Positions 1-61,273 of a DNA stretch of 62,492 nt are shown here, piece after piece (within the stretch, counting starts at the first letter, position 1; each line of letters begins with the position of its first letter). The DNA is from Rhizaria sp. SCN 62-66 (lineage: Eukaryota). Where the stretch lies: contig MEDY01000148.1 in the NCBI GenBank assembly GCA_001724265.1, positions 1-62,492 of the forward strand, given 5' to 3'. Both the position numbers and the translations under genes were made by a program. The notes under the pieces are model-generated. The model worked only from the letters and a program-made list of their open reading frames with translations, had not been told where the DNA came from and made no database searches.

Positions 1-1551
1 CACGGGTCGCGCACAGTCGCGCACATCGCTTTTCGTGTCGTTAACCGCACGAATAGGACTACGCTTGTTCATGTACAATACAATCTTGTTGTGGAGGTCA
101 ACAACGCCGTTTAAATGCAGATGGCTCACGGCAATCATTTTGCCGCTCATAACCTCGCGGATTGCATCTTCAACAGCGCCAGCAACAATCCATACCTCGT
201 CGCTAGAGTTACCAAGCACAATACTGTATAAATTCCTGCCACACGCATCAGAAACCCCATCATACGGTGCACGGGTTATTGTTTTGGTGTAGTATGCGTC
301 CAAGAGCGGAGGCATAGTCTCAGAAACATCCGCGGATCCGAACATGCGTGTGATTGATAGCTTCATCGGAATAATGGGCGCCTTGTCGAGCACTACGGGC
401 TTGATCTAGGGATACGCGGCCACAATCTGCGCTAGAATTGCAGGGTTGCGTCCTGAAAGAGAGCGCTGCAGCAGGCCTCTGAAACTGTCTTGCCTCCTCC
501 TCAGAACAAGGGAGCAGAGCAGCTCGCCGCCCGACTGCCAGAGCAGCGAGTTCGAGAGCTCCGCGCTGCGCTGCCCCAAACGCTCAATAAACCTCATCGC
601 GAGTTCAAAGCAGCGAAAACAGCCGCCAAACGCAGCGGACATCAGCAGATCCAGCTGTAGGTCGCGGCTGCGGAACACAATCGCGATCGGCGCGGCCGCG
701 CCTGAAGTCACATCGGCCGCAGCGTTCCCGGTGTCGTCGCTGTTGCTGTTCGTGAGGAATGCAACCATATCGGCGTTGCCGTTGTTCGCTGCGGCAATAA
801 GCGGATAAAACAGCTCTACGTGCAGCGCTTCCGAATCTGAGGGGAAGCTGTAGCCGCAAGAGCCTGTGTGGGTTCGCATGTCATCCCGCCCCCACAACTC
901 CCTACTTAAGAACTCGGCCGGGTCCAGGCCCCACAGAGGAGTTATGATTTCAACCAGTGTCATACTAAGCCCGCGGCGAGCGTATTCGTCGAATAAGCCA
1001 CGCCTTTGCTAGTTCAGCGCTGCCCACTGCGTCGGCGTCGAGGATGAAAAAAGCGCGCGCGCACAGGCGACGCGGTTCAGCAGTGCTGCTAACAAGAGCG
1101 CAGTCAAGTTCCTGGTGTGCGCAGTTGTGACGTCAGCACCAGTCTAAAGTAGCGCCGTAACAACGCGCGGGAGGTCGAAATGCACTGCAGTTGTGAGCGG
1201 AGACGATCCACGAGTCGTGAGAACGTTTTCGCGCTCGCGAGTTGGGAACAGGGGCAGGGGGGAGCGGCCGCTCAGGGCTAAGGTGTCATTGATGTACACG
1301 GCGTAAAACTCTGGCGACAACAGAGCATGCGCTGCAGCCATGTTGAATAGAACTTCGTCTTCAATGCTAGCTTTGATGTAGTCAACATCGTCACTCTCTG
1401 CATCTGCTGTTGCCGTTGTTGTTGTGCCAGAAGTTGCAGACGCTGCGAGCTGCTCTATAAGGCGCACGAGTGCAGCTGGCTTGCAAAAGGACTCAGTTAG
1501 CGCAAGTGTCTCCAGGTAGGAAACCGCACGGCCATTTATAATACGTTGCAT
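1..1551 (-). CDS. Ankyrin-repeat protein, 3' end runs off the window; one frame of 517 codons with three in-frame TAGs (1144-1146, 1009-1011, 406-408)
   Basis: Manual translation shows ORFs 1144..1551 and 406..963 share a frame that stays open to position 1 apart from the three TAGs. Ankyrin-like text: SPLTTAVHFDLPRVVTALL*TGADVTTAHTRNLTALLLAALLNRVACARAL and YPLIAAANNGNADMVAFL. Could be a pseudogene if TAG is a stop. Confidence 0.6.
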
Positions 1552-2029
1552 TTTTGGCGTTTGCAGTTCCTGTCACTGCTTTGGGTGTGATAAGATATCT
1601 GTCAGAGAGAGTATCGAAAGAAGCTGTTGGGGAAAACTTGAAAGAATGATACCGCATGATCAAGAGATTCATTGCCGAGTTAGTTAATATGTGCTTAATT
1701 AATAGTTAAATAAACACTATAATATGATGTTATAAAGACGAAATGCAGATAATCCATGATGTTTTATGCCAAACAAGAACACCCCTCCATGACTCCAAAC
1801 TCCACCACAAACACAAACCTGCTGATCACCATTTGGTCACGTCACCACTGGTCACAGTCACTTTACCCAACAAGGAGTTCGGAAGCACGTACGGACATTA
1901 GATCGGGATCACCACACATGTGTTGTTTGAGACCGTATATTCTTCGTTGTTTTTTAGAGAAACATATCTGTGTTATTGCTCCCATCCTTCCATACGTCTC
2001 CTCCAAATCACACAGGTTAACGCAGTCCG

Positions 2030-3014
2030 ATGAGTTCGCTCAGGCTGCTGACACCCGCCCTGCATCCAGAGCTCGTACGCGCAAAGAGTCTGTTGCGCCT
2101 TCCCATGGCGCACGCCTAGGGGCGGTTTGCCTTGGTGACGAGCTCCAACTCCGCTGCCGCTGTTCCAAGTCACGATTCGCGTCTCCTTCGCGGCAGCGAC
2201 AGCCACGTCCCCACGTCGTCTGTCTCCAAGCTTCCTGCTCTTGCTTTTAAGTCAACCACTTAAAATGCCTCAGGAACATGCACGTTCGTCAACGTGCCTT
2301 TGTGCATCACCAGTTGTTTTGTCTCTACCAGCGCTGCAACCGCGGCCTCTCTGGCCTCCGGCACTCCTGCCTCCGAAACTCCGACCTCCAACACTCCTGT
2401 CTCCAAAACGCCGACCTCTGACGCGATCTCCGAGATCCTGACCTCTGCCGCGAAAGCAAAGCCGACAACTGTTGAGGAAGCCCTTCGTGCGTCGATAGCG
2501 CACGCGGAGCTCGCGGTTGTTCGCCGGCTCAAAGAACACAATGCCGCAGTGGAGCAGGGGCTTTCCGCAGACGACCCCTAGACGGAGTTCCTCAAGGCTG
2601 AGGAGGCGCTCAATAAGATCAAAGCCAAGCTGGTGAGTCCGGAGGCAAAGCAGCGGCTTGAGAATGCAAACATGCAGGAGCAAAAGATGTAGAAACCAGG
2701 TTGATGCTGAGTTGTGTTTTGCTGACGCGAAGGCCGATGATGCAAACGGTCTTGCTGATGCTAAGGAAACACTTAGTATCGCACGCATCAAGAAAGAATG
2801 GGCGTCTGTCATCATGAATGTGCAAGGGTCCAAGTCGCAAAGACTGAGTGCGAGGTGCGCATTGCTGAGATCGACGCAAAGCTGAAGAGTCAGTAATAGA
2901 AATCCCGGGGGTCTGTTCGTGGGATGAGTTGTGACGACGACATCGTCGTTCTCAAAGCAGCTCAAGGATGCGAAGAAAGAGCTAGAGGATATTCTTAACG
3001 ATGCCCCTTTTTGA
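2030..3014 (+). pseudogene. Decayed gene for a Ser/Thr-rich and coiled-coil protein
   Basis: Frame from ATG 2030 (MSSLRLLTPALHPELVRAK...) carries TAG 2117, TAA 2261, TAG 2579, TAG 2690 and TGA 2702. Coiled-coil-like text continues in shifted frames (NQVDAELCFADAKADDANGLADAKE; EVRIAEIDAKLKSQ; KQLKDAKKELEDILNDAPF*). Confidence 0.45.
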
Positions 3015-3669
3015 CCATCCCAGGCGTGGAGCTTGATGGCCGGCGCAACTTCGGGTTTTACCACATGCGTAGTGTGTATTATTTATATTTGCGCATCATT
3101 GTTGGTGAAAGCATCTGCATTCTTTACTCTGCGGCTCGCTGTCAAGCAGTCAAGCATGCTTCGACGTGATTACTAATGCATCAGTTTCCAACGCATACGA
3201 TGCGACCACAACAACTTTCGATATGAATCGGACACGTGATTTTTCTTAGTATGCCGCAATAGAATTATACATGTTGTTGCGATTAACTTTACAGTTTTGC
3301 GTCATTTTGGACACATTTGTCATGCATTATTCATCGTGAGGCAGAACACTTGGAGTCTCCGGAGTAATCCTTTTAGTCCAGGACTGTAAAGAAGTGGTGG
3401 AGACGTGTCGCTGTTCAAATCAGAGCCACGTATGGAACGCCTACGCATGGTCATAGACTGCTAAATCGACCTATACGTTTTTGTGAATTATTGTATGTTA
3501 TGTATACGCGAATTATCGACTGACGAACGTTGTCCTCATCAACACAATACTTTCTCGACCCATTCACCGTCTTCCTCTTACAACTCGTAGCCTTACTTCC
3601 CCGCACTCTCCCACGCCAGACACACACATCTTAAGTCGACAAGCTACTTCCCAAAGCTTTACAACGGCC

Positions 3670-4739
3670 ATGTCTCGTGCTCGCTCTGCCTCAGGTTTGT
3701 CCAGCTCCTCATTACCTCATGCTACGCCCGCCTTTTGTCTCCCTCATTACGCCCCCACTCAAACTCACCTCACTACCTTGGCTCTCCTCCCCATGTTTTC
3801 CGCCACAGCGTCCTCGCTGCCGCCGAACCTTGTCGAGGTTTTGCAGGACTCTTTCGTCGAGAACAACTTTATCCCCGCCGTGCGCCAGGCGCTGATCTAC
3901 CTCGCCAACGAAGACCCAGATACCCCGGCCGTGCGCGTCGAAGTCGCGCGCGGCTGCCTCGAGACGGCGCTCGAGGCCGTCGAGACGGGCGCGCTCGTCC
4001 CCGCGCAGCAGGACGCGCTTGCGACGGAGCCCGTCTCCGCGGCCCTCTTTCTCGGCTTCGTGTACCTGGTCACGTCCGCCGTGCGCGGCCGCGTGCCGGA
4101 GAAGGTGATTGTCGAGGACCTCAAGAAGATGGGCTTTTCGGCCAGCTACGACGCCGAGTTCATCAGCAAGTTCAACGCCAAACGCGCCGACATTGAGGCT
4201 GCCGCGCTCACCAAGGTATGCCCTTAACCGCTACACCCACTCGCTTTTGATCTCAACTCTTTCTCTCATGATTCACCTTGTCAGGAACTTAGTCACTCAT
4301 GTTCTTGCTGTTCTACTGATACCATATTGCTTCTCTTTAGCGCATCACGCTGCCCGGCCTGGACCGCCTTGACTGGCGCGTGGACGTGGCGATTACGACG
4401 ACGCACCTCGTGCGCGCCTTCAAGCCCACGGTCACATTCCAGGTCACTGCCAGCGACGGCCGCATCCACACCTTCGAGTCCAGCGTCGACAAGTTCCACC
4501 AGGTACGGCGCAAAACATACTCGCTCTTGAACAACTATTGTGTATTTCAAAACAAAATTAGCTATTAACAGAAGCCACCGCTATATTTAAATGCTTCCAC
4601 TCAAACATGATCTCAACTCACCGATGTTGCTCTCTTTTGCGTGTGTACTTTTGTTTAGCTCCGTTTTAACGTTGCGCGTGTGCTTGCTGCGATGCAGAAC
4701 ATCGAGCAGCACCCCACGCTCAAGCGTCTTGTTGACTAA
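3670..4739 (+). CDS. COMMD5: COMM domain-containing protein 5-like; exons 3670-3694, 3809-4215, 4341-4502, 4659-4739
   Basis: Spliced C-terminus LPGLDRLDWRVDVAITTTHLVRAFKPTVTFQVTASDGRIHTFESSVDKFHQLRFNVARVLAAMQNIE matches the COMM domain (WRVDV motif) of COMMD5. GT-AG introns keep frame; TAA stop. Confidence 0.85.
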
Positions 4740-5931
4740 GCATGACGTATGTGCAGAACTGTCATCTGTGTTTTTCGTGTTGTGTGTGTGATGGATGCTG
4801 TTAATGGAGTTAATGTGTGATTACAATTATGTAGTTGTTTGTCGTAATGTATGTTTATTAATATTCGATACAAAGTATGTTTGAAACCACTCTCGCAGTA
4901 TCTCTGTTTTGTTGCCGCCGCGGCAGCAGGACACCGGCGTTTCGTGGGACGGCTGGCGATAGTGTTCCAGCGACTGCGCCGCTGGGTGAAGCGAATGCTC
5001 CTGTTGGACTTTGAACTCCAAGCGCCACCCGCGAGTGACACTGAGTCCATCGCTCTTGTCCCCAGTGCCACTCCTAGTGCTCGTCTCCGTGTAATTACGC
5101 GTCATGGTTCGGCCGGTTGCAGAGCGCTTCACACCCGCGTGGGCGCGTGTCTTCGAAACACAGCTCGTGCGGCTCCTGCGGATGCTCACCTTCGTGGCAC
5201 CGTCGACGCTCTCATCAAATCTGTTTGATGAGAATGTAAACATTAATGTCAATAACGTAAGATACTTAGTTCACATGATTGAATGTGTGGCACAAATCCG
5301 TGCATATACAGACTCAAACTTTCTCTACTCGCTCTAAATCGATCACATATGGAATAATATAGTATGAAATTCCGTATACCACCGTAACGTAGCTTCTATC
5401 CAATGTCTGTCGATGCTATCCGAACAAATGCAATGATACAGCGTTGGAACGAAGCCAAGTTACAAATCTTCCATGCTGATATATGTCATCATAATGGCGC
5501 ATCTAGAGTGGTATATGTCATTTTGTATCTCAAATGCAAGATTGTTTTAAATATCTTCTCATCGCAGTCGAGACTGACGTCCGGGCTGAGACATCTTCTC
5601 AATAGTGCTATTTTTGATATGTCGACCACAAACAAAAGTTGACCAGAAAAGCTGAATGCAAGTGTGTTTGGAGTAACGCTTTGCTTTCGTGGTATTGAAC
5701 ACAGTGCATACAGATGCGAGTTCTGAAAACATGCCCGGGTGGCTTTTCTATTCACAATCATTGTTAAATTGTGCGTATGCGCGTTTACTGAGGCAATCAA
5801 ATGACTTGCTTAGCATGCACCCTGATTCCTGTGCTCACTTCTGTCCGACCTACATTCGCTCTTCTCCAACCTATCCCCTCTCATTAGCGGTTTCACGCGT
5901 CACTGTCCGCGCGGTCGACGTTGGTGTACCT

Positions 5932-6849
5932 ATGTTCCCCACGGTATTCGACTCGCGCTCGCCTAGCCCGGCTGGAAAGATGCTTTCCGGCACAGGTCCC
6001 CAGAAGGCTGGGTCTACAGGCTCCGCTCCTGGCGCTGGCCCTCGTCCTGCTGCACCGTCTTCCGCCGCAGTCGTCCCCGCGCAGCGCCGCGACGGGCCTG
6101 CCCCTGATCCTGTCTCTCTGTCCGCCGCGCTCCTTGCTCCCGGTGGCACGTCCTCGCTCACTGAGGCACAGATCCAGGACATTGTCAAGCAGAACGACGA
6201 GTTGCGCCTCCGACTGCGTGACTTCTCAAGTGCACTCGACCGTGCGCTGCGCAGTGCCAGCACGGGTGGCCCTGCGGCGGCTGCCAAGGCCGCTGGCAAC
6301 GTCCGTATCTCCACATCGGTTCAAGACCCCGAGGTCGCGAACATGCAGAAGCAGATGGACATCGTGCGGCGCGAGCGCGACGAGCTCCGGCGCCAGGCCG
6401 AGAACAACCCGTCGCTGGCCCGCGTGCAGGAGCTGGAGAACAAGCTCCGCGCTTCGCAGGACGAGACCAAGGCCGCCAAGAAGGAGTGCGACGTGATCAA
6501 GCTAGACCTTAAGCGCGCGCAGGACGCGCTGGCCGCCGTGCCCAAGCGGATGCAGGAGCTTGAGGCCCGCGAGCAGAGCAACCTGGACACCGTAGCGGGG
6601 TACAAGGAGAAGATGAAGGAGTATCAGGTGCGGCACGATCGCGACGAGGCCCAGATGCGCGCTGACAAGGCCCGCCTTGTGGACCTCGAGATGACACTCC
6701 GCAAGGCCAACTCCGGCGGCGCCAACGCTAACAGCAACAGCTCTGCAAGTGCGAACACCACGATGAACAGCAGCAAGAGCATCAGTGGCAACGCTTATGT
6801 CGGCGGCAGCGGCAGTGCCAACGTGACTGTGAGTGCTGGCAATAACAGC

Positions 6850-6908
<59 letters not shown>

Positions 6909-7035
6909 GACTGCTGGTGCCAACGGCAACAGTCGGTTTGCTCCTGCGTCGCCGCTGCTGCCGCCTATTGCCGGCGCGGCCAACAGCAACACTCAGCAGA
7001 ACGCCACCGCTCATACGAACGTCAATGCCAACAGC

Positions 7036-7075
<40 letters not shown>

Positions 7076-8985
7076 CCGGTGCCGGTGCCGCTCGCTCTGG
7101 CTGGATCAAGTCACCCCAGAGCAAGATCATCATTGCTCCGAAGAAGCCTGCCGCCGCAGGCGCTTCTGCGAGCCCTGCCAGTCCCCCTCAGCAGCAGCAG
7201 TACAAGCCCAGCCCGAGCCCGGCCCAGTCTAAGCCCCACGCGGCTGATGGTAAAGACGGCAAGGATGGTAAAGACGGCAAGGATGCCAAGCCGCACGCGC
7301 ATGACGCTAAGTCGCATGCCCCGGAAGCCAAGCCGCATGCCGCTGAGGCGAAGCAGCATGCCGCGGAAGTCAAGCCGACCCCGTCCAAGCCTGAGGCGGC
7401 GGCCAGCGCCAACGCGCACAACAGCGCCCAGCCTGCGACTCCTTCGTCTCCGACGGCCAACGCGACTATCACCGCCGGCCCCATCAGCGCGAGCGCGAGC
7501 GTCACTGTGGCCGGCAGCGGCGCGGCGGTTCGTCGGCCGTCGACTGCGATGGACTCTGCGATCGTGGCCGCGCTGAGCGGCGTGTTCGACGGCGGCGATC
7601 ACGGCGAGGGCCACGGCCACGGCGACGACGAGATCGACACCGCAACACCGGTCGGACACACCGCGACGGTCGCCGCGCTCAACGGCAAAGACCACGGTGG
7701 TGCGCACGATGACGGTGCCAAGAAAAAGGAGGACGAAGAGAAGGTTAAGGCTGCTAAGTCTAAAGCTGAGGCTGAGGCTGCTGCTGAGGCTGCCGCTAAG
7801 GCTAAGGCCAAGGCTGACGCGGATGCTAAGGCCAAGGCTGATGCGGAGGCTAAGGCCAAGGCTGACGCGGAGGCTAAAGCTAAGGCTGACGCAGATGCTA
7901 AGGCCAAGGCTGACGCGGATGCTAAAGCTAAGGCGGATGCTGAGGCCAAGGCAAAAGCAGATGTCAAGGCTAAGGCTGAGGCTGATGCAGAGGCTAAGTC
8001 TAAGGCAGAGGCTGAGACCAAGGCCAAGGCCAGGGCTGAGGCCGCTGCCAATGCTAAGGCTGAGGCTAATGCACATGCCAAGGCTAAGGCTGAGGCTGAG
8101 ACTAAGGCTAAGGCTGACGCGGAGGCGAAGGCTGATGCCGACACCAAGCATAAGGCTGATGGTGCTGCTAACGCGGAGCACAAGGACAAGAATAGCGACA
8201 ACAACGACGACGACGACGACGACGAGGCTCTTAACGGCGACGAGAGTGCCGGCTCCAAGCTCTTTGCCAGCGACAGCGACGACGATGACAAGGACGCCGC
8301 GGGCAGCAACAACAAGCCCAAGGATGACGACCACAAGAAGGCCGCCGACGATAACGACGGCCAAAAGGGCGACAAGAGCGGCGACAAGAAGCACGACTCC
8401 AAGCCCAACACCCCCAAGGTCCACGCCTCGCTCACTGTCCCTGCCGCTGCCGACGCCGACCACGCGAGCACTCCGAGCAAGTCGGCCGACTTGGCCGAGG
8501 ATGCGGGCGACAAGAGAGCTGTGGCGACGCCACGCTTGCAGCCGCGGCCGCCGTCTGCGCCGAGGGTGGGGACCGCGCCGCGCTCTCCGGCTCGGCTCGT
8601 CAGCAGTCACGATAAGGCCGGCCGCGAAGGCCACGACAGCAGCGACAAGGGCGACGACGGTCATGAGGACGTGTACAAGGAAGGCGTGCCTAGCAGTGCT
8701 GAGGACGCTCATAGTGACGATGAGAGTCCCAAGAGTGCTCACCACGACGACAATGACGCAGCGTCTAAGCAGGGCAGTCCTAAGAACGCTCACGATGACA
8801 AGGACGAGGACGCTCACAAGGACGACCACGGTGCAAAGAATGTGCATGTTGAAGAGGGCAAGGATAAGGCCCACGATGCGCATAAGAAGGACGACGGCCA
8901 TGAGGCTCACAAGGACGAGAAGCATGATAAGAGCAAGAGCAAGGCAGACGATGATATGAATATGGGCTCTGATCTTGACGATTGA
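5932..8985 (+). CDS. Hypothetical ~1,017 aa protein: N-terminal coiled coil, poly-Asn, AKAKAD/E repeats, Asp/His/Lys-rich tail
   Basis: Long ORF with strong GC3 bias from about 5932. ATG chosen downstream of an acceptor-like TAG at 5885-5887; start could be 5980. TGA stop. Confidence 0.8.
6850..6906 (+). repeat. (AAC)19 coding microsatellite, poly-Asn
   Basis: Perfect AAC run inside the CDS. Confidence 0.95.
7750..8165 (+). repeat. Coding tandem repeat, ~24 bp unit encoding AKAKADA(D/E)
   Basis: Repeated gctaaggccaaggctgacgcgga-type units; Ala/Lys/Glu helical repeat. Confidence 0.9.
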
Positions 8986-9419: not shown

Positions 9420-12400
9420 TTAATTTTCAACAAAATGAAGCACTTCAGCGACGACAGCAGCAGTCTCTTGTGATGCCCCCGTTGCCGCGGCCGCTGCGGC
9501 CAACCGCGCAGCCGCTGCGCTGCCTGCAACAAACGGTTTTTGCAGCAACACACGCTCCATCAGTGCACACTCTGCACGCGAGAGCTGTGAGCTGAGCATG
9601 AACAGTCGCGCCATCGACGTTTCCGACACAATCGCAGGCGAAACAGTCTCAGTCTCAGTTGCGTTGATGTTTTTGGAACTGTACTGATTATGAATAAACA
9701 GCAAATGACGCGCTGCCTGTGAAAGGGCGCGTTTCACAGCGTCAGAACGCATAAAATCTCTATCAGAGCTGCTCGTGTTGTTCCTGTCGTCGTTCATCTT
9801 GACAGTGATGAGGAGTGTGGTCAGATTGGCTGGCGAGTCCAGCACCGTTGACAACAGCGCCAAGCCGCCGTCAAGTAAAGTTGGCTCAGTTGACTGCGCT
9901 TGCGATAAGTCCGTCAGAAGCGCCGGAACTAACTCTTGCAACAGGGTCTCATCCAAGTCTTTCGCGCTGTTGCTGCTCGTGGACTTTGTCGAGGCAACGG
10001 CCCCCCTGGCGCCACCCTTGGCGCGCCCAAGCGTCTCGCGCGCGTCCGCACCACCCGCCACAGAAAAAACCACAGTCGCCGAGCGTAGTACACGCAGTGC
10101 AAGGCCGCGCAGCGCGGGCAACACACTCGCACCCCAGTCGGACTGTGTCGGCAACGCTTGCGGGATGTCCGTGGTGACCGCGCCGAGCACGGTCACACCG
10201 GCGGCCAGCGACGCCGCGTAGCACACGTTGAGCACGCTGTGCGTCACGGGGGCGAGATACGGGTGCAATGCAGCAGCGCGGCGCACGAGCTCCCGGTCGG
10301 CGTGCCACACACTGCTGACGGTTGAGTCTGCGGTACTTGGACCAGAAACAGCGAGACACCAGCGGTGCGCATCAAGAGCAATGGCATGAGCGACGGATGT
10401 AAGAGCCGACTGCGCCTGCGCAGCAACAAGCGCGGGAAGAAGCACAGACGCGCACCACGCAACGCACCGCGCAGCTGACGCAGTTGCCGCAGCGACGCTA
10501 GGGCCGGACTCATTGTTTGCCTCATCATTGTTGTCACTGTTCTTCGCAGCTGTGAGCACTGAGAGCGCAAGCGCAGCAACGTCAGGCGCGTTCGCCAGCA
10601 GCTGCGGCAGAATTGGTGCAAGCGTGAACGCTGACGCCGCAGTCTCCGCTACCGTGCACGCCGCCACAGCCTTGGCCTCAGCCGCTGCGGCTTCGCTGGC
10701 AATGCGAGCAATAATAGCATCAGATGTTACCTCCTTGGACGGAGTGCTAGGGTCAGTGAAAGGGACAGTCGCAGAGGCGAGCGTCGACGCGGACGAGAGC
10801 GGCGCGCTTACACCAAGAAGCAAGAGAGTAAGGGCGGCTTGGGTTCCAGCCGCGAGGCTCTCCGAGTCAAACCCCGAGTATATACCAGTATCAGCACCAT
10901 AGACCTTTGCAGTTGCAGTCGTTGTCGTGGAGTCGACACCTGCAGCCGCTGCGGCCAGCGGCACGATCGCGGAGAACCGCCCAGGTGCGTCGGCAAGCAA
11001 CACGCCACTGTGGGGCAACGCACGCGCGCGGGCACTGGGCAACGCTGACGAAATCACACCACCCGACGCGGAGGCCGAACTCCCCTGCAACAATTCTTCA
11101 TTCGCTGGAGTTGATGCAGTTGCCGAAACGTGCGCATTGCTAGTCGTGACATGGACAGCGGTGGACGACAGCAATGGCATCGACACGGCAACGCTTGTGT
11201 TGGAGTGCGTTGTCGTGGGAAGTGACGGCAGGTGCATCGCACCAGAGCCAGTGATGTTGACCCTCCGCAACACGCGTGCCCACAACGAGCGCACCTGGTT
11301 CCGACTGGCTCTGACATCAGCAACACTCACACTTGGCGTGAGCACCGATGCGGCTGTAATAGCAGCGGCAAGCAGGGCCACCGACGCAGTGGCGTCGGCC
11401 CAGCTCGCTGTTGTCACCAGCCGCTGCCTCCACTTCTGGTTGTGCACCCCCTTAGACGAAGATGTAAGTCCCTCCTTCGGCAGAGGCGCACTGGGAGTAA
11501 GGTGCAACATTGTGCCCAAGTGATGAGCAATGGTCGCGCCGGTGCCGGCGTGGCGGCTGAGCAAAGACCAAAGACGCTCACCGTCATTTGCAGTGGAGAT
11601 GATCAGGGCGCACGTGCGCGTGAGTACAATCAACGCGCGAGTCAGCGCGAGCGCTAAGCCACTGTGCTAACTCTTGTTCCCGCTATTCTGGGCATTCGCA
11701 TCCGCCAAAGCAGTCTGCTTTTGGAGCTGCGCGTGCGTAGAGAGCAACTGCAGCCTGCGGCGGGTTGCGCGGCGGTCGCCACGGCTCACGCCACGGCTAA
11801 CACTGCCGTTGCTCGTCCTCTGAACGCCAGATACAGTGGTTGCAGCAACGCCTGCGATGTTGCTCGAGGGCGCAACAGTTGCCGCTGTCACGGCGACGCT
11901 ATCCGCCGAGGTTGCGCTGCTGTTCGTCGGGGATTGCGATATACTCGAAGTCAGAGGATTGAAGGGTGCCGCATCGGCGGAAAGCGTCGATGTGCTAAGA
12001 CTGAGTGGTGAGGCACTTACATCGGTGACAAGTTGCTGGTCGGAGCCATCACCGCCGTCATTTTCATTCTCACGTTCCACTGTTGCTGTATCCCCAGTCA
12101 CTACATTCACATCTTTATCGGCGGGCACGCGAGCATCCGTTTTGCCATCGCTGACATCACTCACGCGCATGTGCGCAAATGCAACGAGGTTTGTCATCAC
12201 AGCCGCAGTCGCCACCAACAGTGCTGGCAGGGCCGCCGCAGCAGCATCAGGGTCTGCGCGCGCCGCTTGCGCGACACTACTCCAACCGGAACCAGCGCGA
12301 GCACTGGCGACTGCAACTGCAACGGCGGCAGATGCAAGTCCGTGGCCACCGGGCGTCACACACACATCCCGTGCAAGCGCCTCCGTAGTGTCATTCGCGG

Positions 12401-12807
12401 TTGCGGCGACAACAACAGCATTCGCTGAGGCTACAGCGGCAACACGGTGTGTAGCGTCAGTGCTTGTGCTGTTGTGCGTGAGCGCGAGAGTAAGTGCGCG
12501 AGCCGCCGAGGCAACATGCGAAAACGCACCAGTGGATGCGATTGAGTCGCACTCAACAGCATCACCGTTCTTTTCTTCGAGACCAGCGTCCGCGTCAGCT
12601 GCACTCCTGGTTTTCTCAGTGTCACCGTCGCCAGCGACAGTGGCAGCAGCCTCGGCAAACTCAGCTGCAGCCAGCGCTTCAGCGCGCCTGGCAGTCGTCT
12701 TGTTCTTCTTCTTGAGGCGCAGGTGGTACTTGCGCGCCGCGATAGCGCCCGCCACGGCCTCGGTCACAATCGCGGGGTCACTGTACGGGCCCTGACCTTG
12801 TTGTTGC

Positions 12808-12839
<32 letters not shown>

Positions 12840-13353
12840 AAACTGCGCGTCGGCACCAACAGCAGACGTACTTGCCGCCGCCTCAACGGCATCTGCGCCG
12901 TTATTGGTGGCAACCGCAGCGGCACCAGAGCCCACGTTCGCCCCATTCGGGACATTAACACTGTTGCTCTTGCGCCGCTTGGCGCGCCACTCCTTTTCCC
13001 GCGCCACGTGCTCGGCAGTGCGCAGGTGCGCGAGCACTGCGGCGGCACCCACGCCGGCCGCGGCGCCGCACGCACGGCACCGCATGCGCGTCGGGCGCCG
13101 CGGGTATGAGATGAGCCCTGAAGTTAAGCCGCTGCCGGAGCCGGAGCCCGGGGAGGTCACGCTCCCGCCCTGGGAGGCGACGACGCCGCTAGGGGACGCG
13201 GTGACGCTGCCGGTCGCGCTCGGCACAGGCAGCGCTGCAGTGTTCAGCAGCGCGGCAGCTGCTGCGGCATCTGTGGCGCCAGCGGTAGGCGTCGCGGCGC
13301 GCGACGGCATCGCAGACACGGGGACACTGGCGTTCACAGAAGTCACTCCATTG

Positions 13354-13398
<45 letters not shown>

Positions 13399-28200: not shown

Positions 28201-28899
28201 CCGCCGTTGTATCCACCACCGTACGCAACATCAGGGCCCGTGAAACCCGCGCCGTTGGGGGGCACGCCCGCGCCCGCGAGCCCCATGTTCGCGTTGTTGC
28301 CTACGTTGACGTTGACGTTCGCGTACATGTTGCCGTAGTGAGGAGCGCCGTATGACGAGGTCACGGCGTTGGCGGCGGCCACGGCGGCGGCGGCCGCGGC
28401 GGCGAGCGCGTTGTTGTTGGCGGCGGCGACCGCGGCGGCGGCCACGGCGGCGGCATTGGCGCTGACGTTTGACACTGCGGCCGTGGCGGCGTCGGCGTGC
28501 ATGGTCAGGTACGTCCCGTCGGTGTTGGACGCGTTCATCAGCATCAGCATCCCGGCATTACCACCGCCACCGCCGTTGTTGCTACTCGACGCGGCATTCG
28601 CGGTGGAGCCAGCGCCAGCGCCCGTGCCAGCAGGGTTTTGACGCGAGCGCGTCTGTTGCTTCGCGCTCGCAGTCCACTGCTGCTTCGCGCCACCCTGCAT
28701 CTGCACCGGCTGCTGCTGCTGAAGCTGCTGCTGCTGTTGTTGTTGCTGTGCAGTGTTGATCATCACGTTGTTGCTGCTGTTGCTGGTTGAGGAAGCAGCG
28801 GTGCGCGCGCGCGCACTGTTCACGCTACTGTAATTGTTGTTATTGTTGTTATGCACACCGGTGACATCACGCTTCAAACCCTGTTGCTGCTGCATCTGC

Positions 28900-28931
<32 letters not shown>

Positions 28932-30067: not shown

Positions 30068-30102
<35 letters not shown>

Positions 30103-34361: not shown

Positions 34362-36700
34362 TTACATCGCGCTCCAACGCGGGTTCTGCACCACCACCTT
34401 GTCGCTCTTGAGCGCCTCCACTTCCTGCTCGCTCAGCCCCAACACCTCGGTCAGCACAACCTCCGTGTGCTGGCCCAGGAACGGCGGCGGCCGGCGCGCG
34501 TGCATCGGCAGCTGCACTTCGCCGGCCCGCACAGTCACGGGGCACTTGTTGCCTACGGCTGTCGCCGAGCTGCTGGCGCTGGTCAGAGAGGCGACAAGTG
34601 CGGATGCCTCAGTCATGTACGTGTTCGACGACGACGCAGCCGAAGGAGTACTTACATCGGCACTTACATCCGCACTAGTATTCAGTGGACGGTAGATCTT
34701 CACAGCGGGGCCAATCAACGCCAACTGGGTCCCTTGCTCCTGCTTCTCAGCGCTCGACGCTGGCGCTGCCTCAGCCTCGCATTCAGCGCGCGACTGCGGG
34801 TAGTCGACGAACTGCACCATCCCCCGGCTCAGCACCTGCGGGTGGTTCATTGTCTCGGCGACCGTGAGCACGGGTGCCACGGGCACGCCCAGCCCCGCCA
34901 GCGCCGTCAGCACGGCGCCCGCGTCGGCCGTGCGCAGACGTGCCGTGATCAGCGGCAGCAGCGCCGACTGGTGCTGCACGCGTAGTGGGTTGGTCGCGAA
35001 CCGAGGGTCGGCGGCGACGTCCGGGAGGTCCAGCCCGTCGGGACCGACAAGGAGCTTGAACTGCTTGTTGTTCAGCGCGCCCACGGCAATAAACCGGGGC
35101 GGCTCATTGGGAACAGCAGCGTTCGCACTAGCGGGACTATTCGCGGAGTTAGCGTTCGAGTCGCTCTTGCTGTTGTTGCTGTTGTCACCGGCGGTACTCG
35201 AGCTGTGGCCGCCGATAGGGAAGCACTGGTAAGGCACGATGGAGCCGTGCGCCGTGCCGCGGCGCTGCGAGACAACGCCCGCGGCGAGATACACCTGCGC
35301 AATGTTGGCCAGCGCGGCGACCTGGCACTCGAGCAGCGACGTCACCACACGCGCACCATCGGCGTATCCATCGCTCTTGGCACCAACACTACTCGCTGTG
35401 AAAGCGGACAGTTCTTGTGCTGCTGCTGCAGCGGTGACGGCGGAGGCCGCGCTGATGCGCGTGGGCCGGCAGCCCTGCTTGGCGGCCACGGCGGCCGAGG
35501 CCTGCGAGCCTGCGGCGCGCGCCTGCTGCTCCGTGTTGCCGGCCAGCAGTGCGGCGACAGTAGCCTCGAGCTAAGCTTCACGGCGACTGGCGCGGCGCGC
35601 GCGCTGCGCGGACAGAGAGGCCAGCACCGAGGACAACGTGTTGAGACCTGTGATGACGTCGGTCAGTGCCGCACCGGGGCGCGCCTGTAGTCGAACCGTA
35701 TCGTTGACGTAGAGTTGAAGTGCAACAAGAATTGAGTACAATGATCAAGAGCTGCATATGAACTAACAGTTACAATTGTTTGACGAAAAATAGCACACAA
35801 TCACCCCATAATAAGGTCGCCTCGACTCATGATTTGTATAGTTGTGCATATGCGTGTGACATCGATGCACAAAGACGACTAACGTACCGGAGCATCAGGC
35901 GCACCCGTGACACCCAGCAGCCCGCCGAGCGAGCTGGCCATAACGTCATATCCGGCGGTAGCGCGCATCACGCCGCTCTCGCCGTAGCCCGAGATCGAGG
36001 CGTAGATCAGGTTGGGGTTTTCCCTGGTCAAATCATCGAATCCCAGTCCCAGCTCGTCGAGCTTGCCCGGGATGTAGTTCTCGACGACGACGTCGCACTG
36101 GCGGGCAAGCTGCTTCACCAGGGCAACGCCGCGCGGGGACTTAAGGTCCACCGCAATCGAACGCTTGTTGCGGTTCAGGGCGAGGAAGTACGCGGCCTCG
36201 CCACGGAACCCCGACTCAGCAGCACAGCTCGCAGTCGAAGCTGTGGCAGTCGCGTGATTGGCTGCAGCGGCAGGAGGCTTTGCGGTAAGCGCAGAGATGT
36301 CGTAGGGGTTCTGGAGCTGCTTGCGAAACTCCACAGTGCTCTGTGTCAGCGGCGCGGGCTTGTCTGCGCTGAAAAAAGGCGGCCCCCACTCGCGCGTGTC
36401 GTCGCCGCCAGTCGGGTTCTCGATCTTGATCACCTCGGCGCCGAGGTCGCCCATCAGCATCGTGCAGTACGGGCCCGCGAGCACGCGCGTGAGATCCAAA
36501 ACGCGCACGCCCAATAGGGGAAGCTCTGTCAGACCAGGCGCGGGCGGCGTGGACTGCGCAGCGCTGGTCGCGGTGGTGGAGAACAGGCGAGGACGGGAGT
36601 GCCGAGGGGGGGCCAGGAGATTGCTGGAGCTGCATACTGCAACTGCGCTCGCAGCAGAGCCGATGCGCATAGCACGGCGAGTGGCGCACAGTGCGAACAT
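34362..36700 (-). CDS. CaiB/BaiF family III CoA-transferase (SUGCT-like), probable mitochondrial presequence; exons 36700-35888, 35684-34362; in-frame TAG at 35571-35573
   Basis: [64 protein letters not shown] (catalytic Asp region), [37 protein letters not shown]. Arg-rich N-terminus. TAA stop. Confidence 0.9.
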
Positions 36701-37144
36701 GTTCTGTGAAGAGCGTGTCTTGGTTCTATGACTGGCCGATCACGCCTGGGAGCTGTGATGTTGTCGGGTGGACAACTTGAGAGTGACATAGGATGTGAAG
36801 AACAAGATATGTGGGCTAGGAACAGGTCAAAGCAAAGTGTTGCAAAAATATAATTGATAACCCGTTATTTTAAAACTAAAACATTCTGATAAACCGTTGT
36901 TGACGATCAAAGCACAGAGTTATTCAAAGTTCCGATAAGGCTTGTCGGTGGGGATGTGTGTCCGATCCCACCAACATGTTGGACTTATTTAGAACCATCA
37001 CACAAATCCACATTGCATATGAAAATGTAGATGCCACTTTTTGTACACATAATGAGCTGCATGTATTTATCTAAAACCATGCTTCGTATCTCCTTCGTTT
37101 TACTGCAGAAGTCGCACTACCCCTCCACGTCCCACTCGAGCGGC

Positions 37145-40100: not shown

Positions 40101-40399
40101 TCCGTCTTCCTATGCGGCGCCAGGCTGTGACGCGCGCCGCCTTCGCGCTGCACTGCATGAGCGAGATGTCTGTAAACCGCAGCAACGGTGCGATGACTGC
40201 GCGCGATACGAGCGATTCGAGCGCTCTGAGCGCTCGTGGCGCTAGTGGTAGTGTTGATAGCTTCACGACTGAGTGGGCTCCGTCGGCGGCGGTGCGCGCG
40301 GTGGCGAGTGCGGCCGCGCTGTCGCCGCAGGGGCTGCTGTGGGGACCGGCGTCTGCGGCGGAAGCGGAGTGGCAGTGCATATTCGCGAGAAAGAAATGA
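37145..40399 (+). CDS. Hypothetical ~1,084 aa protein with LYR-like N-terminal motif
   Basis: Long uninterrupted ORF; SRSIYRRLLRHMK near the N-terminus; ATG 37145 follows an acceptor-like CAG at 37106-37108. TGA stop. Confidence 0.7.
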   Translation: MPGPAHRSSAGSASRSIYRRLLRHMKRAQELHPCWYDSFVKSIKIVSRDPSAATLTVPAAVTAYGATAAHGHHSAAASTPALRTEFAAATSAVGADSAEVKARALWALVDTVIPPIATAPLPLQQQQQQQQSPRFSPDARPGSGQTGAFSAHAASPQWLCVDLVKSLSVQARALMTTGYATPVYFDASMDHIEHAGVGREFPTVPAGMVLTHTLPSDSRTAASSNCSNANADNTDTSSRPSPMLPIVSYPPSQPTISTHPAFAATTMPLSPSHCLDLSLLALRTLDLLAPHTAAAAAFPDTLRRVERELTAAHGHFTVPHLIKKTAADLGSTGRMNADAAHSHELIGEAAALLRLLLTVGNIIEPAQNHSVNISQNQSITSDTSCDQTTLSQFACDFGLGAEGNSAMQRVLLTVSALVADLEHSPLTLPLPPSPNAGANANTSYDTGMQSQQHQQQVQTLLLSRPDSPLPPSVRLSAASAVAAALFPMRSQSPYLVAPQHSHAATVAAAAINAAAALESNTRSANGAVSLLPSAALTPVPLSPPVAAALAQLFAAAAGVRVRAVATASGTPLLLYRPPPLEAAAATAADLVRNRTDSGETSVGAVNEREEVEDGGQLCRGEMAARLQGGLLLRHSVRVRALSATVANHKQHNDDTSFKTNTAARGDVDAAVVDSMTSAVSAKELAAKLLQQRFPHLSNSGKVNIPLPEEIKNSNSSSDAQSDVANIIDSATPVQALPQPSSGLSLINGLTSSLDPLLFDTTGALPVLLTLSPPPTATSLYSSNTNAGAGSLGGAAGSGAGGAPPVLTVAAVTVGSASEKRLYERPTGPRSGGLGWWVPPSVQSPEQSLTVTAPTRSEQLTVSSVNNSVNASTNTCVNTSATSASAALTVRLAPHNHRSSDPLFAPFGGIAVPSTASSHMNESNSVSHGASIANNNTALVFTHDSPAGVNTPLIAVPGAAVPMLPLSSPRQQALRVAQLALACERVIRLPMRRQAVTRAAFALHCMSEMSVNRSNGAMTARDTSDSSALSARGASGSVDSFTTEWAPSAAVRAVASAAALSPQGLLWGPASAAEAEWQCIFARKK

Positions 40400-40553: not shown

Positions 40554-40629
40554 AAATCGGATGTTCAAATCGGATGTTCAAATCGGATGTTCAAATCGGA
40601 TGTTCATGATGTTTGATATGATGTTTGAT
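40554..40629. repeat. Tandem repeat (AAATCGGATGTTC)x4 followed by (ATGATGTTTGAT)x2
   Basis: Read directly; lies between two convergent 3' ends. Confidence 0.95.
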
Positions 40630-40866
40630 AAGGTACTAGTACATGTACAATGTATTGTGGCAAACACAGAGAATCTGGCTCAACTAATGAGGGAAAGTTT
40701 ATTCTGGTTATTCATAGTTTTCTTAGTACAGATCAATACAATTTACAGATAGCAAGCACATGTACAAACACACTGGGACGCCCCACATATTCATTTACCT
40801 GGCGGCGGACGGAGTGTGATTCGCCAAATGTGCAACGGCTTGCGAGCACGCATGTGTGCATCGCGC

Positions 40867-56778: not shown

Positions 56779-56790
56779 CCGTAAGCGTAA

Positions 56791-56834
56791 CATAGGTATG
56801 GTCATACCTATGGTCATACTATGACCATAGTATG
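56791..56834. repeat. Three overlapping perfect inverted repeats just after the stop codon
   Basis: 56791-56800/56803-56812, 56808-56817/56821-56830 and 56815-56823/56826-56834 are exact reverse complements. Confidence 0.9.
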
Positions 56835-57289: not shown

Positions 57290-57880
57290 ACGTGGTACAG
57301 GCGGGCCGTATATACATTGCGGCGACAGTGTCAGCACTGTCGAGCGTGTGTATAACGCGTCACAGGACGAAATTCAGGCCCTCGGCGCGCTGTTGTGGTA
57401 TCTATGGGCAACTAAGGACTACAAGCTGTTGCTTTAAATCACGGGCATGTCCCAGGATAACGTTGTCGTATACGCTAACGCGTCACACGCGACAATGCGC
57501 ATGGGCCGCTCTCATATGGGTTACATCGTTAAGATCGCGGGCATGCCTATGATATGGCGCTACTCAATCCAGAAGAGTGTCGCGCGTTCACCCAAGGTTT
57601 CGGAACCGCGCGCGCTGTCAGAGGCTACAGAGGCGGCATTATGGACCAAAGATGTGTTTGAGTGGCTTGGCTGCAAGACAAAGAGCCCGGTGCATGCTCA
57701 CACTGACAACATGCCCACGGTAATGCTGTTACAGAGGCCGGTGACGGGCAAACCCAGCAGTTATGACTGCATTCAAGACGCGCGCTATGTGTTCGAGTGT
57801 GTGGACAAGGAGCAAGTCAAGGTGCAGTACGTGCAGGCTAAGCACAACAAGGCTGACATTATAACCAAGGCTCTCAAACC
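57290..57880 (+). mobile_element. Degenerate Ty1/copia retrotransposon fragment (end of RT plus RNase H)
   Basis: ALGALLWYLWATKDYKL, then VYANASHA...RSHMGYIVKIAGMPMIWRYSIQKSVARS...TDN...VKVQYVQAKHNKADIITKAL follow the copia RT-RNase H consensus. Frameshifted, first catalytic Asp replaced by Asn, no LTR seen. Confidence 0.8.
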
Positions 57881-59047
57881 GGGCACACTGGTCAGACAGA
57901 CGGACAGGAGATACATCGCGTGCTCGTCATTGGCCGCCGTCGCAATCTTGTGCAGCGTCCGCGCGCCGTGCTCGGGGTCGTGCCGAACGCCGACGCCCAG
58001 CACGTAGTGCATCGCCAGCTCCGCGCGACCCGCGGGGCGGCCCGTCGCGTCCGCGCCCATGGCAAAGCGGAACGAGTCGTCATGGTCCTTGGGCTGGCCA
58101 TAAAGGCCCTTGTAGCTAACCTCCGAAAGCAGAATAAGCGCCCACACGTCGCCCGCGTTGGCGGCAATGCGCAGCTAGCATGTGTCGGTCGCGGAATTGC
58201 ATGTTTCGACGAGGTGCTTGCCAAGGGTCACTTGCACTTCGGTCACACCCGCCTCGACCGCAGCCTTCGTGTGCAGCATCAAGCGCTCGCTCTTGCCGTA
58301 ATACGCCACTGCGGGGCCATAGAAGCCGTCGCCCTCGGCATATTGCCCAGATCGCAGCATCAGCGTGTGTCCAAGCGTGGCGTCCGGCTTGAGGGCCAAA
58401 CTGACCATAGTACGTCACACGGCCGTATGTATACATGACAGCCAGTTCGCCCTTCTCCACGCCGCACCGCAGCCACGCCAAGATGTCAACGTTCTTCCGA
58501 TCCCTGAGTTGCGCCAGAACGCCCGTCTCAACGCTGTGCGCAAAGATGGCCGCCACGCGCCCTCCGCGCGCTGGTGGCCAGCGGCGATGGCGGCGTGCAG
58601 GCTTTGCTCGGCATCGTCGAGGTCGAGCTAGCACGACATCAGCCACAGCGCATACTCGTAGCTGCCGTTGGCGCTCAGCGCGGCCAGACTCTTCATCCAC
58701 TTCTTGGCGCCGGTAATGCTATAGCGGCCGAGCTCGGGCCGCACACAGCTCTGCGCCATCTTGCGGATCGCCGCCGGGTGGCCCAGCTTAGCCGCGTCGC
58801 CCACGATCCCCAGCACCTCTTGCAGGTCGCCGCTTGTGGGCGAGCTGGCCAGTAGCGCGGGCCCAATCTCGAACAGCTCCTGCGCCTTGGCGGACGGCGC
58901 CGGCGGCTGCAACGGCAGGGCGGATGCGTTGCGCTGCACGAGGAGCGGTTTTGCCGTTGCAATCGGCTGTGACTGTGCAAAGTAATCGTTCTTGGCCTGC
59001 TGCTTTTGCTGCTGCTGTTGCTGCTGCTGCTGTAGCCTTTGCTGCAT
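57880..59047 (-). pseudogene. Decayed Sel1-like repeat region, in frame with the upstream kinase
   Basis: DAAKLGHPAAIRKMA, AWLRCGVEKGELAVMYTYG, *LRIAANAGDVWA, LAMHYVLGVGVRHDPEHG. TAG 58628 and 58175, two compensating frameshifts near 58560 and 58395, truncated at the copia fragment. Confidence 0.7.
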
Positions 59048-61273
59048 TTACTGCGTCGGACTTAGCTGCACCACGTGGCCACCCACCGACTGTGCGGACT
59101 GCGGAGGCACCAAGCTCAGCTGCGCAAATTGTTGCGGTAACGGATAGCTTGGGTATTGTCCCGACGAAGGCTGCGACTCGCGTCCCACAGCGGGCTGCGT
59201 GCCCCGCAGTTCTTGCTGCTGAGACTGCTGAGACTGCTGAGTTTGCTGAGGGCCGCTTGTAGCTTGCTGAGTGCGAAGAGACGACTGCACAGACGCTGAC
59301 ATTGAAGAGGATGTCACCGCTGGCTGAGGCCGCGGTGTTGTCGGCGACGGCGGGGGCCTCACCACACCGGGCGAGACTACAGTTGCCGACAATACTACGG
59401 ACGAGGTGCCGCTGAGGACCAACTCGTGCACGCTGACCGGGGGCACGTCCGTCGATCGCGTAAGCCAGCCCTCGTTAATGGCAGAGTTGCTCGGCGTCGA
59501 GCGGCGCACGCCCTCTTGCTGTGATGCCTGTGACGCTTGATAACGCTCTTGCTGCGCGACGGGCCTTGGCGACAGCCGCCCTCCGTTGGCTGCGAGCGCC
59601 GCTGCCGCCTGGAATGGCAGAGAGAGTAGCTGGCCGGACGGCGAAACCGGCAGCTGCGTCGCGGAGTCCACCGCAGTTGAGCCGCTGTCATCGCGGACCG
59701 GCTGACGAGGCATGCGCGGCGGCACGCGTGGGGGCACGAGGGGTAACGTTGAAAGCGGTTGCGTCCGCGAGTTCGAAGGTGAAGACGCGCCATCCGCGTC
59801 GCTTACAGGCAGCCGCGGGGGACCGCGGCCGAGGGCCTTGAGCATGAAGTTGCGCACGGCCCGCTCATCGCTTGGAATGGCCTCAAGCTTGTCAACCAAG
59901 TCGTCAATCGCTGGGCGCTTGTCACGCTCTGCATGCCAGCACATGCGAATGAGCTCGATCAGCGCAGGCGGCGGCTCCGTGCCAGGCAGTAACTTGGGCT
60001 GTGCGACACCGTTGTAGGCATCGAGCTCAAGCGTGGGGCGCACACCGCCGGTGATCAGCGCAGGAATTTCTTGGCTTGTCAGGTTTGCAAGCGGCATTAC
60101 ACCAAACGCAATCTCGAACAACGTCATTCCCAGTGCATAAACATCCGACTTGGAATTATGTTGGTAACGTCCACTCAGCAGCTCCGGCGCCATCCACGCA
60201 AGGGTACCCGAAACAGAATCTATCACAATGACACAATGAGTATTGAGATATGAAAATCAAACAATATGAGCACATGTAAATTGAAGATCATGTTTGACTA
60301 GATATTTTTCCCTCGTTGATTGTTGTGACGAAGATATTGTTGATGACGTACGAACTGCAGACGCGAGTGTCATGCTCTGCATCGTTGCGTGAAGCTTTGA
60401 GTTGCCAAAGTCGGACACCCTAACGAGCGCGCGCGTGTCGTTTCCGCCGAGTCCCCAGAGGAAGTTGAGTGGCTTGATGTCGCCGTGGACGATGTTCTCG
60501 ATGCTGAGAGCTTTGATGGCGCTGGCAACCTGCAGTGCCAGCCACACGCGGCCCTGGCTTGAGAGAGTGCGGTAGTCGGGATGCGTCAGCAGCTTGCTGA
60601 GCGGGCCGCCGTCCATGTAGTCCATCACGATGACGAACTTGTTTGCATCTCCGGAGCCGATGACGCTGCCATTGAGGTTGCCGCTACTACCCAAAGCGTT
60701 CGTGTCCGTGAAGCCGCGGCAGCGCACAACATAACTCGACCGGAGGTGGTATTGGACGTTGAGTTCTTGCATCACATCTTCCTTCTCCCGCAGCGCGTCC
60801 ATGCTTGCGTTGAGCACCTTGAGCGCCACCTACTTGGGCTCGGCGCCCTCGGGCTGGTAGGTTGCGCGGTAGACCTTCGAGTAGCCGCCGCGCCCGACAG
60901 GGTTAACGTCGTGAACGTTGACGAACGCAATCCGGGGAATCTCGTTGTTACTGCGGCGGCCGTGGCTGCTGCTGCTGCCGCTGACGCTGCGGCTCAGCGC
61001 ACTCTTGGGCAAGGGCTGTCCGGACGCGCCGAAGAATGAGGACGCGTTAAACGCCATCGGCAAGACTGTTGAGAGCCCGAACCGGTGCGTTATTGCTGCT
61101 AAGCACCGCAAGAGCTCATTGTCAGTCTCGAGAATCAGTGAGTTGGAGCGGCTGCTTCCCTCCTCATCCGCCGAAGTCGGCAGCTGGGCGATGAAGTCCC
61201 TCGTCCTGTATAGAAGTGGTTGCAGCTCTGACAACGCATCTCGGTTGCTCTCACCCAAAGATTGCTGACTCAT
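59048..61273 (-). CDS. TKL-like protein kinase; exons 61273-60352, 60219-59048; in-frame TAG at 60830-60832
   Basis: VGRGGYSKVYRATYQPEGAEPK*VALK, QE, HGDIKPLN, DFG, GTLAWMAPE, SDVYALG, CWHAERDKRP: all catalytic motifs present, no frameshift. Ends at TAA 59048-59050. Confidence 0.75.

Follow-up and report, generated by a model that had tools for sequence, protein, structure and literature searches.

Does UAG still end translation in the organism known as Rhizaria sp. SCN 62-66? The question is raised by contig MEDY01000148.1, a stretch of 62,492 nucleotides of eukaryotic nuclear DNA (hereafter the window), in which TAG codons stand in frame within genes that otherwise look intact. An earlier note on this DNA had proposed that UAG is reassigned or efficiently read through, while UAA and UGA continue to act as stops. 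A good part of the proposal holds: the TAGs are real, they are fixed and they lie in exons, TAA and TGA act as stops, and none of 15 genes ends in TAG. A new finding is that the reading frame behind one of the TAGs, in a protein kinase gene, is constrained. The main statistical argument fails, however, and some of the stretches concerned are decaying. We put the probability that UAG is decoded or leaky in this organism at roughly 45%.

Six TAGs had been reported at the outset, each of them a CTA on the plus strand and read from the minus strand: those at 406-408, 1009-1011 and 1144-1146 belong to an ankyrin-repeat gene, that at 11667-11669 to a very long low-complexity open reading frame (ORF), that at 35571-35573 to a family III CoA-transferase gene, and that at 60830-60832 to the kinase gene. 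All six are in frame, and the peptide contexts quoted for them (LL*TGADV, YP*IKP, KS*HSG, REA*LEA and PK*VALK) are exact. With TAG read as a residue X, fused ORFs appear at 1..1551 (517 amino acids, three TAGs), 9420..21053 (3877 amino acids, one TAG) and 60257..61273 (338 codons). None of the six is intronic, as their local GC content is 56-71%, splice signals are absent and the same-frame coding signature is found on both sides; the ankyrin site at 1144-1146 and the kinase site even lie inside Pfam domain matches. While all six are real, the list was incomplete. A scan of every stop codon in six frames, seeking stop-free, coding-like sequence on either side, flagged three TAGs (60832, 58177 and 11669), one TAA (59050) and no TGA. 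Further exonic in-frame TAGs stand at 2579 on the plus strand and at 58630 and 58177 on the minus strand, for a total of nine in 6 of the approximately 22 genes modelled. Seven other TAGs that fuse ORFs are 3′ splice sites or intronic (4338, 33594, 41308, 50104, 51629, 54979 and ~30938).

The same codons are present in DNA from other sources. The organism is represented in several metagenomes from wastewater and bioreactors, and at least one poly(A) metatranscriptome contains it too; judged by sampled words, runs of different studies account for 0.88 (X1), 0.76 (X2), 0.76 (X3) and 0.61 (X4) of the window, run X5 covers only 9 of 30 bins, and a small part of the window sequence is also found in RNA libraries. 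Within window positions 1-5700, the range of the comparison, contigs of X3 cover 180-709, 905-1081, 1054-1298 and 1902-5700 with 0 differences, and contigs of X4 show one difference each over 180-709 and 2411-2665. The independent DNA is unchanged at 406-408, 1009-1011, 1144-1146 and 2579, and the agreement also spans the frame changes of a gene at 2270-3010 discussed below. The kinase TAG is found again in L001, a sequence from another collection. This support is at the DNA level and covers four of the six TAGs first reported, all but those at 11667 and 35571. Contigs from the poly(A) run X9 are listed at 1-57, 548-830, 1831-1983, 3974-4006 and 4339-4489, none of them over any TAG, and the depth of this run in the TAG-site bins is zero.

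As for the true ends of genes, independent gene models gave the same count as the earlier note: TAA nine times, TGA six times and TAG not once. The sample is small, and the probability of finding no TAG among 15 ends is 0.087, 0.035 or 0.013 at an assumed TAG share of 15%, 20% or 25%.

The kinase gene is the one place where the fate of a frame behind a TAG could be followed. The gene (59048..61618, minus strand) consists of exons at 61618-61489, 61287-60352 and 60219-59051, with introns at 61488-61288 and 60351-60220 and a TAA at 59050-59048. It has 745 codons with a single in-frame TAG and matches Pfam Pkinase (E = 9e-21, residues 122-300 of the exon-2 ORF). The TAG is codon 196 and lies between the glycine loop (GRGGYSKVY) and VALK. 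It is identical in L001, a kinase ortholog from a sister lineage about 5% diverged, and so predates the split of the lineages; a window-type copy of the gene was not found in L001's metagenome. The 5′ flanks of the two sequences differ by 10.0%, their first introns by 10.9%, their second introns by 7.6% and their exons by 3.3-6.9%. In the 1647 nucleotides of frame after the TAG, the ratio of non-synonymous to synonymous substitution rates (dN/dS) is 0.29 in exon 2 and 0.48 in exon 3, and 37 of the 85 changes are synonymous, compared with 25% under neutrality (binomial P = 2e-4). The same stretch has 0 indels per 86 substitutions, whereas flank and introns together have 4 per 57 (Fisher P = 0.028) and the sequence behind the TAA has 3 per 40 (P = 0.035). 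Purifying selection acts on the kinase frame behind the shared TAG, the only one tested in this manner. The 195 codons upstream of the TAG, for their part, retain the ATG, the splice sites and the frame, their sole indels being of 9 and 18 bases.

The TAA at which the window's kinase ORF stops (59048..59050, minus strand) has had a very different effect. L001 has CAA in its place, and the frame there goes on across a poly-Gln stretch and a tail at least 220 codons long; in L001 the poly-Gln linker and the tail are intact (3100-3810), and the window lost them by the CAA-to-TAA change. The former C-terminal tail in the window (57790..59047, minus strand) is decaying. It carries TAGs at 58628-58630 (AAG in L001) and 58175-58177 and two frameshifts in 662 nucleotides, a 1-base deletion near 58560 and a 1-base insertion near 58385. 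The contrast in indels indicates that the TAA frees the downstream frame from selection, whereas the older, shared TAG does not. L001 bears one more TAG in frame, at a codon of a Gln-rich run that is CAG in the window, and at least 290 open codons come after it. A Sel1/TPR-like identity was considered for the tail and dropped, as no Pfam family is found in either the window or L001. Alignment of the kinase to genome_contigs returned 28 loci, all with at most 45% identity over short best segments, mostly titled as bacterial metagenome-assembled genomes and none of this lineage; viral_contigs gave one locus (35%), likewise not of this lineage.

The ankyrin-repeat gene (copy A, 1..1551, minus strand) starts with an ATG at 1551, and its 3′ end leaves the window, with 109 codons running past the edge. 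Pfam Ank_2 is matched at residues 109-169 (E = 9e-8). Its frame contains no frameshift and no stop apart from three TAGs: codon 136 (1144..1146), within an ankyrin repeat (VVTALL-x-TGADV) and covered by the X3 contig at 1054-1298; codon 181 (1009..1011), covered by that at 905-1081; and codon 382 (406..408), covered by contigs of both X3 and X4 over 180-709, with 0 and 1 differences. ORFs in the databases are pieces of this gene cut at the TAGs (P0097, 135 amino acids; P0098, 231 amino acids), and a near-identical variant, P0248, likewise stops at codon 136. Homology extends to either side of the TAGs in P0099 (47% identical) and P0100 (33%), which shows that the protein family is real. The ORF of P0099 ends three residues past its last aligned residue (query 179), near the TAG at query 181. 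Since P0099 and P0100 both occur on 6 contigs, the longest of 67,273 nucleotides, they are possibly parts of a single gene with a break close to the window's second TAG.

A second ankyrin copy (copy B) exists in runs X3 and X4, 8-11% diverged and at single-copy depth. Depth in the shared blocks is about double that of the flank, and no variant is seen in the flank at 1902-5700, so copy B is a paralog and not an allele. In X4 it has CAG at the window's TAG 406-408 (408 A>G), and it has a TAG at codon 79, where the window has TCG (1317); the 78-amino-acid ORF P0247 confirms the latter. Both copies are thus TAG-bearing, at different codons (136, 181 and 382 in A, 79 in B). No frameshift separates them in the parts compared (X4 322-709, X3 905-1081 and 1286-1539), where a single 3-base insertion was seen. 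In some blocks, 776-933 among them, the copies do not differ, perhaps through gene conversion, and contigs of the poly(A) run X9 fall on both copies, 1-57 being of the window type and 548-830 of the variant type. In the most conserved C-terminal ankyrin block, at 100-156 on the minus strand (IREVMSGKMIAVSHLHLNGVVDLHNKI), the copies differ at 11 codons, all of them non-synonymous yet conservative and 0 synonymous, and no alternative frame accounts for this pattern; outside the block, 11 synonymous and 10 non-synonymous codons are found.

The CoA-transferase family III gene (34362..36700, minus strand; PF02515, E = 2e-20) has exon 1 at 36700-35888, exon 2 at 35684-34365 and a TAA at 34364-34362, and its intron (35887-35685) has the form GTACGT..ACAG. 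The TAG (35571..35573, minus strand) is codon 309 of 711, in an Ala-rich insert found only in this lineage. The only close ortholog, P0009, shares both the intron position and the insert and has Glu at the TAG site (RRIA-E-LDATVAA); its identity to the window protein is 51% by BLASTP and 65% in a separate alignment. The best named relative, from Mortierella, is 37% identical. An intact, near-identical second copy was not present in the protein collection; the near-identical entries there are window-identical ORFs starting past the TAG (P0008 and P0096).

The low-complexity ORF of 3877 codons (9420..21053, minus strand) is a fusion over a single in-frame TAG, codon 3129 (11667..11669, minus strand), and ends in TAA. 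The 748 codons that follow the TAG are open and coding-like, with a log-odds per codon of 0.09 in frame versus -0.51 and -0.27 out of frame. It had been labelled "SCAPER-like", a label for which we found no support, with 0 Pfam families in the 3877 amino acids. Its C-terminal 696 amino acids, scanned against metagenome contigs, gave 134 pattern matches and 0 relatives, and a protein search around the TAG (residues 2930-3380, lengths 2132-6785) gave no match. Another TAG-bearing gene, coiled-coil-like and probably decaying (2270..3010, plus strand), has TAGs at 2579-2581 and 2690-2692 and at least two frame changes that lack intron signals. Its coding signal, read from the three frames and not from a homolog, shifts frame near 2690 and near 2810; a TAA-TAG pair lies near 2886, and no Pfam family is matched. 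These breaks lie in the DNA itself, because the X3 contig over 1902-5700 has 0 differences.

How would such a genome be read? If UAG is decoded or leaky, it would be an undependable terminator that has been purged from gene ends, leaving termination to TAA and TGA. An in-frame UAG would be tolerated through ribosomal read-through, by way of either a UAG-decoding tRNA, for which Gln fits best, or efficient near-cognate read-through. The very low TAG usage, and the lack of any TAG in nine genes with Pfam domains, suggest that this state would be a young or an inefficient one, in which selection still disfavours TAG and lets it gather mainly in weakly constrained genes and inserts. We infer the translation past TAG, the residue inserted and the basis in tRNA or eRF1; a tRNA search of the 62.5 kb found 0 tRNA genes. 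Not every TAG needs read-through, as the gene at 2270-3010 and the tail after TAA 59050 decay for other reasons. The most ambitious version of the claim is that of an early-stage nuclear stop reassignment in a free-living wastewater eukaryote, apparently a non-ciliate, with UAG gone from gene ends, decoded (probably as Gln) and persisting across lineages at about 1 per 1,500 codons, and with UAA and UGA as full stops; we consider this version less likely than not, though by no means far-fetched. A "leaky context" was also sought in the base after the TAG and was set aside. It is C after 7 of 12 in-frame TAGs, but C already follows 35% of the codons one step from TAG (P = 0.083), and the comparison with true stops, where C follows 2 of 14 (Fisher P = 0.038), is not solid.

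The chief alternative keeps the standard code and takes the TAGs for ordinary nonsense lesions in dying, redundant or truncated genes. The window would then hold old pseudogenes (2270-3010 and the kinase tail), a weakly constrained two-copy ankyrin family, and three young genes with a single hit each. We regard this as a strong contender, at somewhat under even odds, and several observations weigh for it and against UAG decoding. From the codon counts of 9,851 confident codons, an expectation that is largely independent of transition bias, one-base changes to a stop in this codon usage would give TAG in 69%, TAA in 21% and TGA in 10% of cases. The high share of TAG arises because CAG, AAG, GAG and TCG are abundant in a codon usage rich in G and C at third positions (GC3-rich). 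Interruption by TAG only is therefore weak evidence, since 69% of random nonsense is TAG already. The argument that the earlier note implied by the lack of internal TAA and TGA does not survive this calculation: nine TAGs and one TAA were observed, and the probability of at least 9 in 10 is 0.15.

Usage and distribution have to be counted on the same side. As the earlier note had said, TAG is very rare in frame, at about 9 in about 13,700 codons, which is as low as for a stop; a neutral synonym of CAG would be over 10 times as common, and for comparison TTG and CTG, a synonymous pair that differs at the first base, stand at 84:241 in the training genes. Its density is 6 to 20 times below a rough estimate for Iotanema spirale, in which about 400 codons per transcript are assumed. 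The TAGs cluster in weakly constrained sequence. Eight of the nine lie outside the 9420-21053 ORF, five of these in two short stretches; the ankyrin gene has three in 517 codons (Poisson P = 0.005), and the decaying tail has two. Nine genes with Pfam domains (proteasome, kinesin, DnaJ, NF-YB-like, Pho88, JmjC, EF-hand, COMM and S1) have none. Other lesions are present as well, namely the in-frame TAA 59050 and frameshifts, both in the kinase tail (near 58560 and 58385) and in the 2270-3010 gene, so that 2 of the 6 TAG-bearing genes also have frameshifts or a TAA.

The residues opposite the TAGs and the constraint on the genes that bear them also fit nonsense lesions. In close copies the TAG is faced by CAG, CAG, AAG and TCG, and in more distant relatives by Glu, Arg (P0099, at ankyrin codon 136), Asn (P0100, at codon 382) and, in the kinase paralogs, Thr, Tyr, Ala or Pro. 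The codons, and the Glu, are abundant one-step neighbours of TAG. In this residue test of low power, the aligned sites are all one-step neighbours or variable positions, none of them hyperconserved. No single residue emerges from the comparison. The two ankyrin copies, over at least 34 changed codons, have 11 synonymous versus 23 non-synonymous codons, which is near neutral overall but ambiguous. For the kinase codons ahead of the TAG, dN/dS is about 1.3, and 9 of 9 differences in exon 1 are non-synonymous. A protein started past the kinase TAG, without the glycine loop and the catalytic lysine, could also explain the constraint downstream.

What nonsense lesions explain less well is the quality of the sequence around the TAGs. 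Lesions of all kinds are seen in the 2270-3010 gene and in the tail at 57790-59047, but not in the ankyrin gene, the 3877-codon ORF, the CoA-transferase or the kinase. When lesions are counted without ORF-based bias in ORFs free of other damage, 8 of 8 are TAG (three in ankyrin copy A and one each in ankyrin copy B, the 3877-codon ORF, the CoA-transferase, the kinase and L001), with no frameshift, TAA or TGA among them (P = 0.05 at 69% TAG). Nonsense mutations would need to have been fixed in three to four healthy-looking genes of about 20, with no intact second CoA-transferase in the protein collection to fall back on. The kinase TAG is older than the split from L001, yet the frame behind it is conserved, while the stretch behind the TAA has two frameshifts. 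The 0 of 15 TAG gene ends would have to be a matter of chance, with P of about 0.01-0.09 depending on the assumed share. Ordinary gene decay nevertheless explains much of the TAG pattern.

A quite different explanation is repair of the TAGs at the RNA level, in the manner of the restorative A-to-I editing of Sordariomycetes; the earlier note, too, had named editing among its alternatives. PUK1, a protein kinase, is reportedly the first recognised case of such editing in Fusarium. UAG premature stops of 71 "pseudogenes" of Fusarium are edited to UGG during sexual development, the ancestral codon in Fusarium graminearum and Neurospora crassa is mostly TGG so that editing gives Trp, and PUK1 is listed among the editing-dependent genes (PMC10776026). 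The window resembles these fungi in its TAG-only breaks in otherwise intact genes, the very targets of the TAG-specific fungal system. It differs from them in that Trp or TGG aligns with 0 of the 9 TAG positions compared; in that TAG is absent from gene ends, which editing leaves unexplained; and in the share of genes affected, 6 of about 22 here being far above 71 genes per whole Fusarium genome. With a best named CoA-transferase match of only 37%, to Mortierella, this is not a known Sordariomycete, and we consider editing improbable. An artefact, be it a base-call error, which the earlier note had left standing, an assembly error or the placement of TAGs in unrecognised introns, could be suspected in a metagenome assembly where many other ORF-fusing TAGs are 3′ splice sites, but it is refuted for five sites by the X3 and X4 contigs and by L001, and is hardly credible for the rest, given that ORFs from several assemblies break off at identical TAGs (P0097, P0248 and P0247), that the six sites are GC-rich and lack GTACG..YAG signals, and that frameshift-free ORFs of 1100-3100 codons speak for a clean assembly.

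The nuclear codes with UAG alone reassigned that we considered, those of Iotanema spirale, exLh and some phyllopharyngean ciliates, were all found as finished states with abundant UAG sense codons. If UAG is indeed decoded or leaky here, a UAG that is gone from gene ends and only sporadic in frame would be the intermediate predicted by the codon-capture and ambiguous-intermediate models; we know of no description of such a nuclear intermediate, and made no search for one. If the standard code applies, the window carries an unusually high load of fixed nonsense mutations, and it teaches a lesson of caution as well: in GC3-rich genomes, gene interruption by TAG only is the null expectation.

The window as a whole has some features worth describing. 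The exons are GC-rich (~60-70%) and the introns and spacers AT-rich, a contrast sharp enough to spot introns by eye. The introns are 100-250 nucleotides long, start with GTACG (more rarely GTAAG, GTATG or GTGAG) and end in YAG, often TAG; across 13 introns and a further 7, GGTACG(T) strongly predominates at the 5′ splice site, and TAG is a frequent ending. Genes assigned to families by Pfam include the ankyrin-repeat gene, COMM-domain and EF-hand genes, a proteasome beta subunit, an RRM protein, a DNAJC9-like DnaJ protein, the family III CoA-transferase, a kinesin, an NF-YB-like histone-fold protein, Pho88, a JmjC protein, an S1-domain protein and the protein kinase. In a protein atlas, the proteasome subunit matched only broad eukaryotic clusters, which are uninformative as to the lineage. 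One contig of X4 joins 4507 to 4657 and skips 149 bases (4504-4657, plus strand); these correspond in essence to intron 2 of the COMM-domain gene (GTACGG...TTTAG), so that run X4 contains a spliced form beside the unspliced sequence. Three very long low-complexity ORFs, variously rich in Ala, Gln, Asn, Ser or Lys/Asp, lie at 5731-8985 (plus), 9420-21053 (minus) and 25221-31849 (minus), and a family match is found only for the RRM domains of the last. A degenerate repeat array of 380 bases occupies 7752-8139 within the first of them. In the spacer downstream of the gene at 37031-40399, a perfect 13-base tandem repeat (4.1 copies) is followed by a 12-base repeat (40554-40630).

It remains to place the window among systems that are better understood. 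It resembles unitary or duplicated pseudogenes in that its stops are one step from abundant codons, two stretches have frameshifts, the TAGs form clusters in weakly constrained genes and constraint is partly relaxed. It is unlike pseudogenes in having no TAG gene ends, a selected frame behind a conserved TAG, four TAG-bearing genes free of frameshifts, TAA and TGA, and no intact spare CoA-transferase that we could find. In the ciliate Oligohymenophorea sp. PL0344, UAA and UAG are both sense codons and UGA is the sole stop (PMC10553269). The window shares with this code the uncoupling of UAG from UAA and differs from it in that TAA terminates here, as nine gene ends and the decay downstream of TAA 59050 indicate. 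The closer parallels are Iotanema spirale, in which UAA ends 104 and UGA 15 transcripts (7 truncated) and UAG none, and the rhizarian exLh, in which 71 ends are divided into 56 UAA and 15 UGA (PMC5304391). In-frame UAGs number 384 in 71 genes of exLh and 204 in 126 genes of I. spirale and fall on hyperconserved Leu (exLh, 95%) or Gln (I. spirale, 79%), and in both the tRNA and eRF1 were examined (PMC5304391). Among the eRF1 motifs reading the third stop base, that paper discusses the GTS motif with Thr32, and Leu69 (human numbering). Next to these figures, the approximately 9 TAGs in about 22 genes of the window, none in the best-conserved genes and none pointing to a consistent residue, are of far lower density, and the GC-rich exons and GTACG introns of 100-250 nucleotides set the organism itself apart from both. 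What the window does have in common with I. spirale and exLh is the basic arrangement: UAG stands in frame within otherwise intact genes and never serves as the terminator, and it is UAA and UGA that end the genes.

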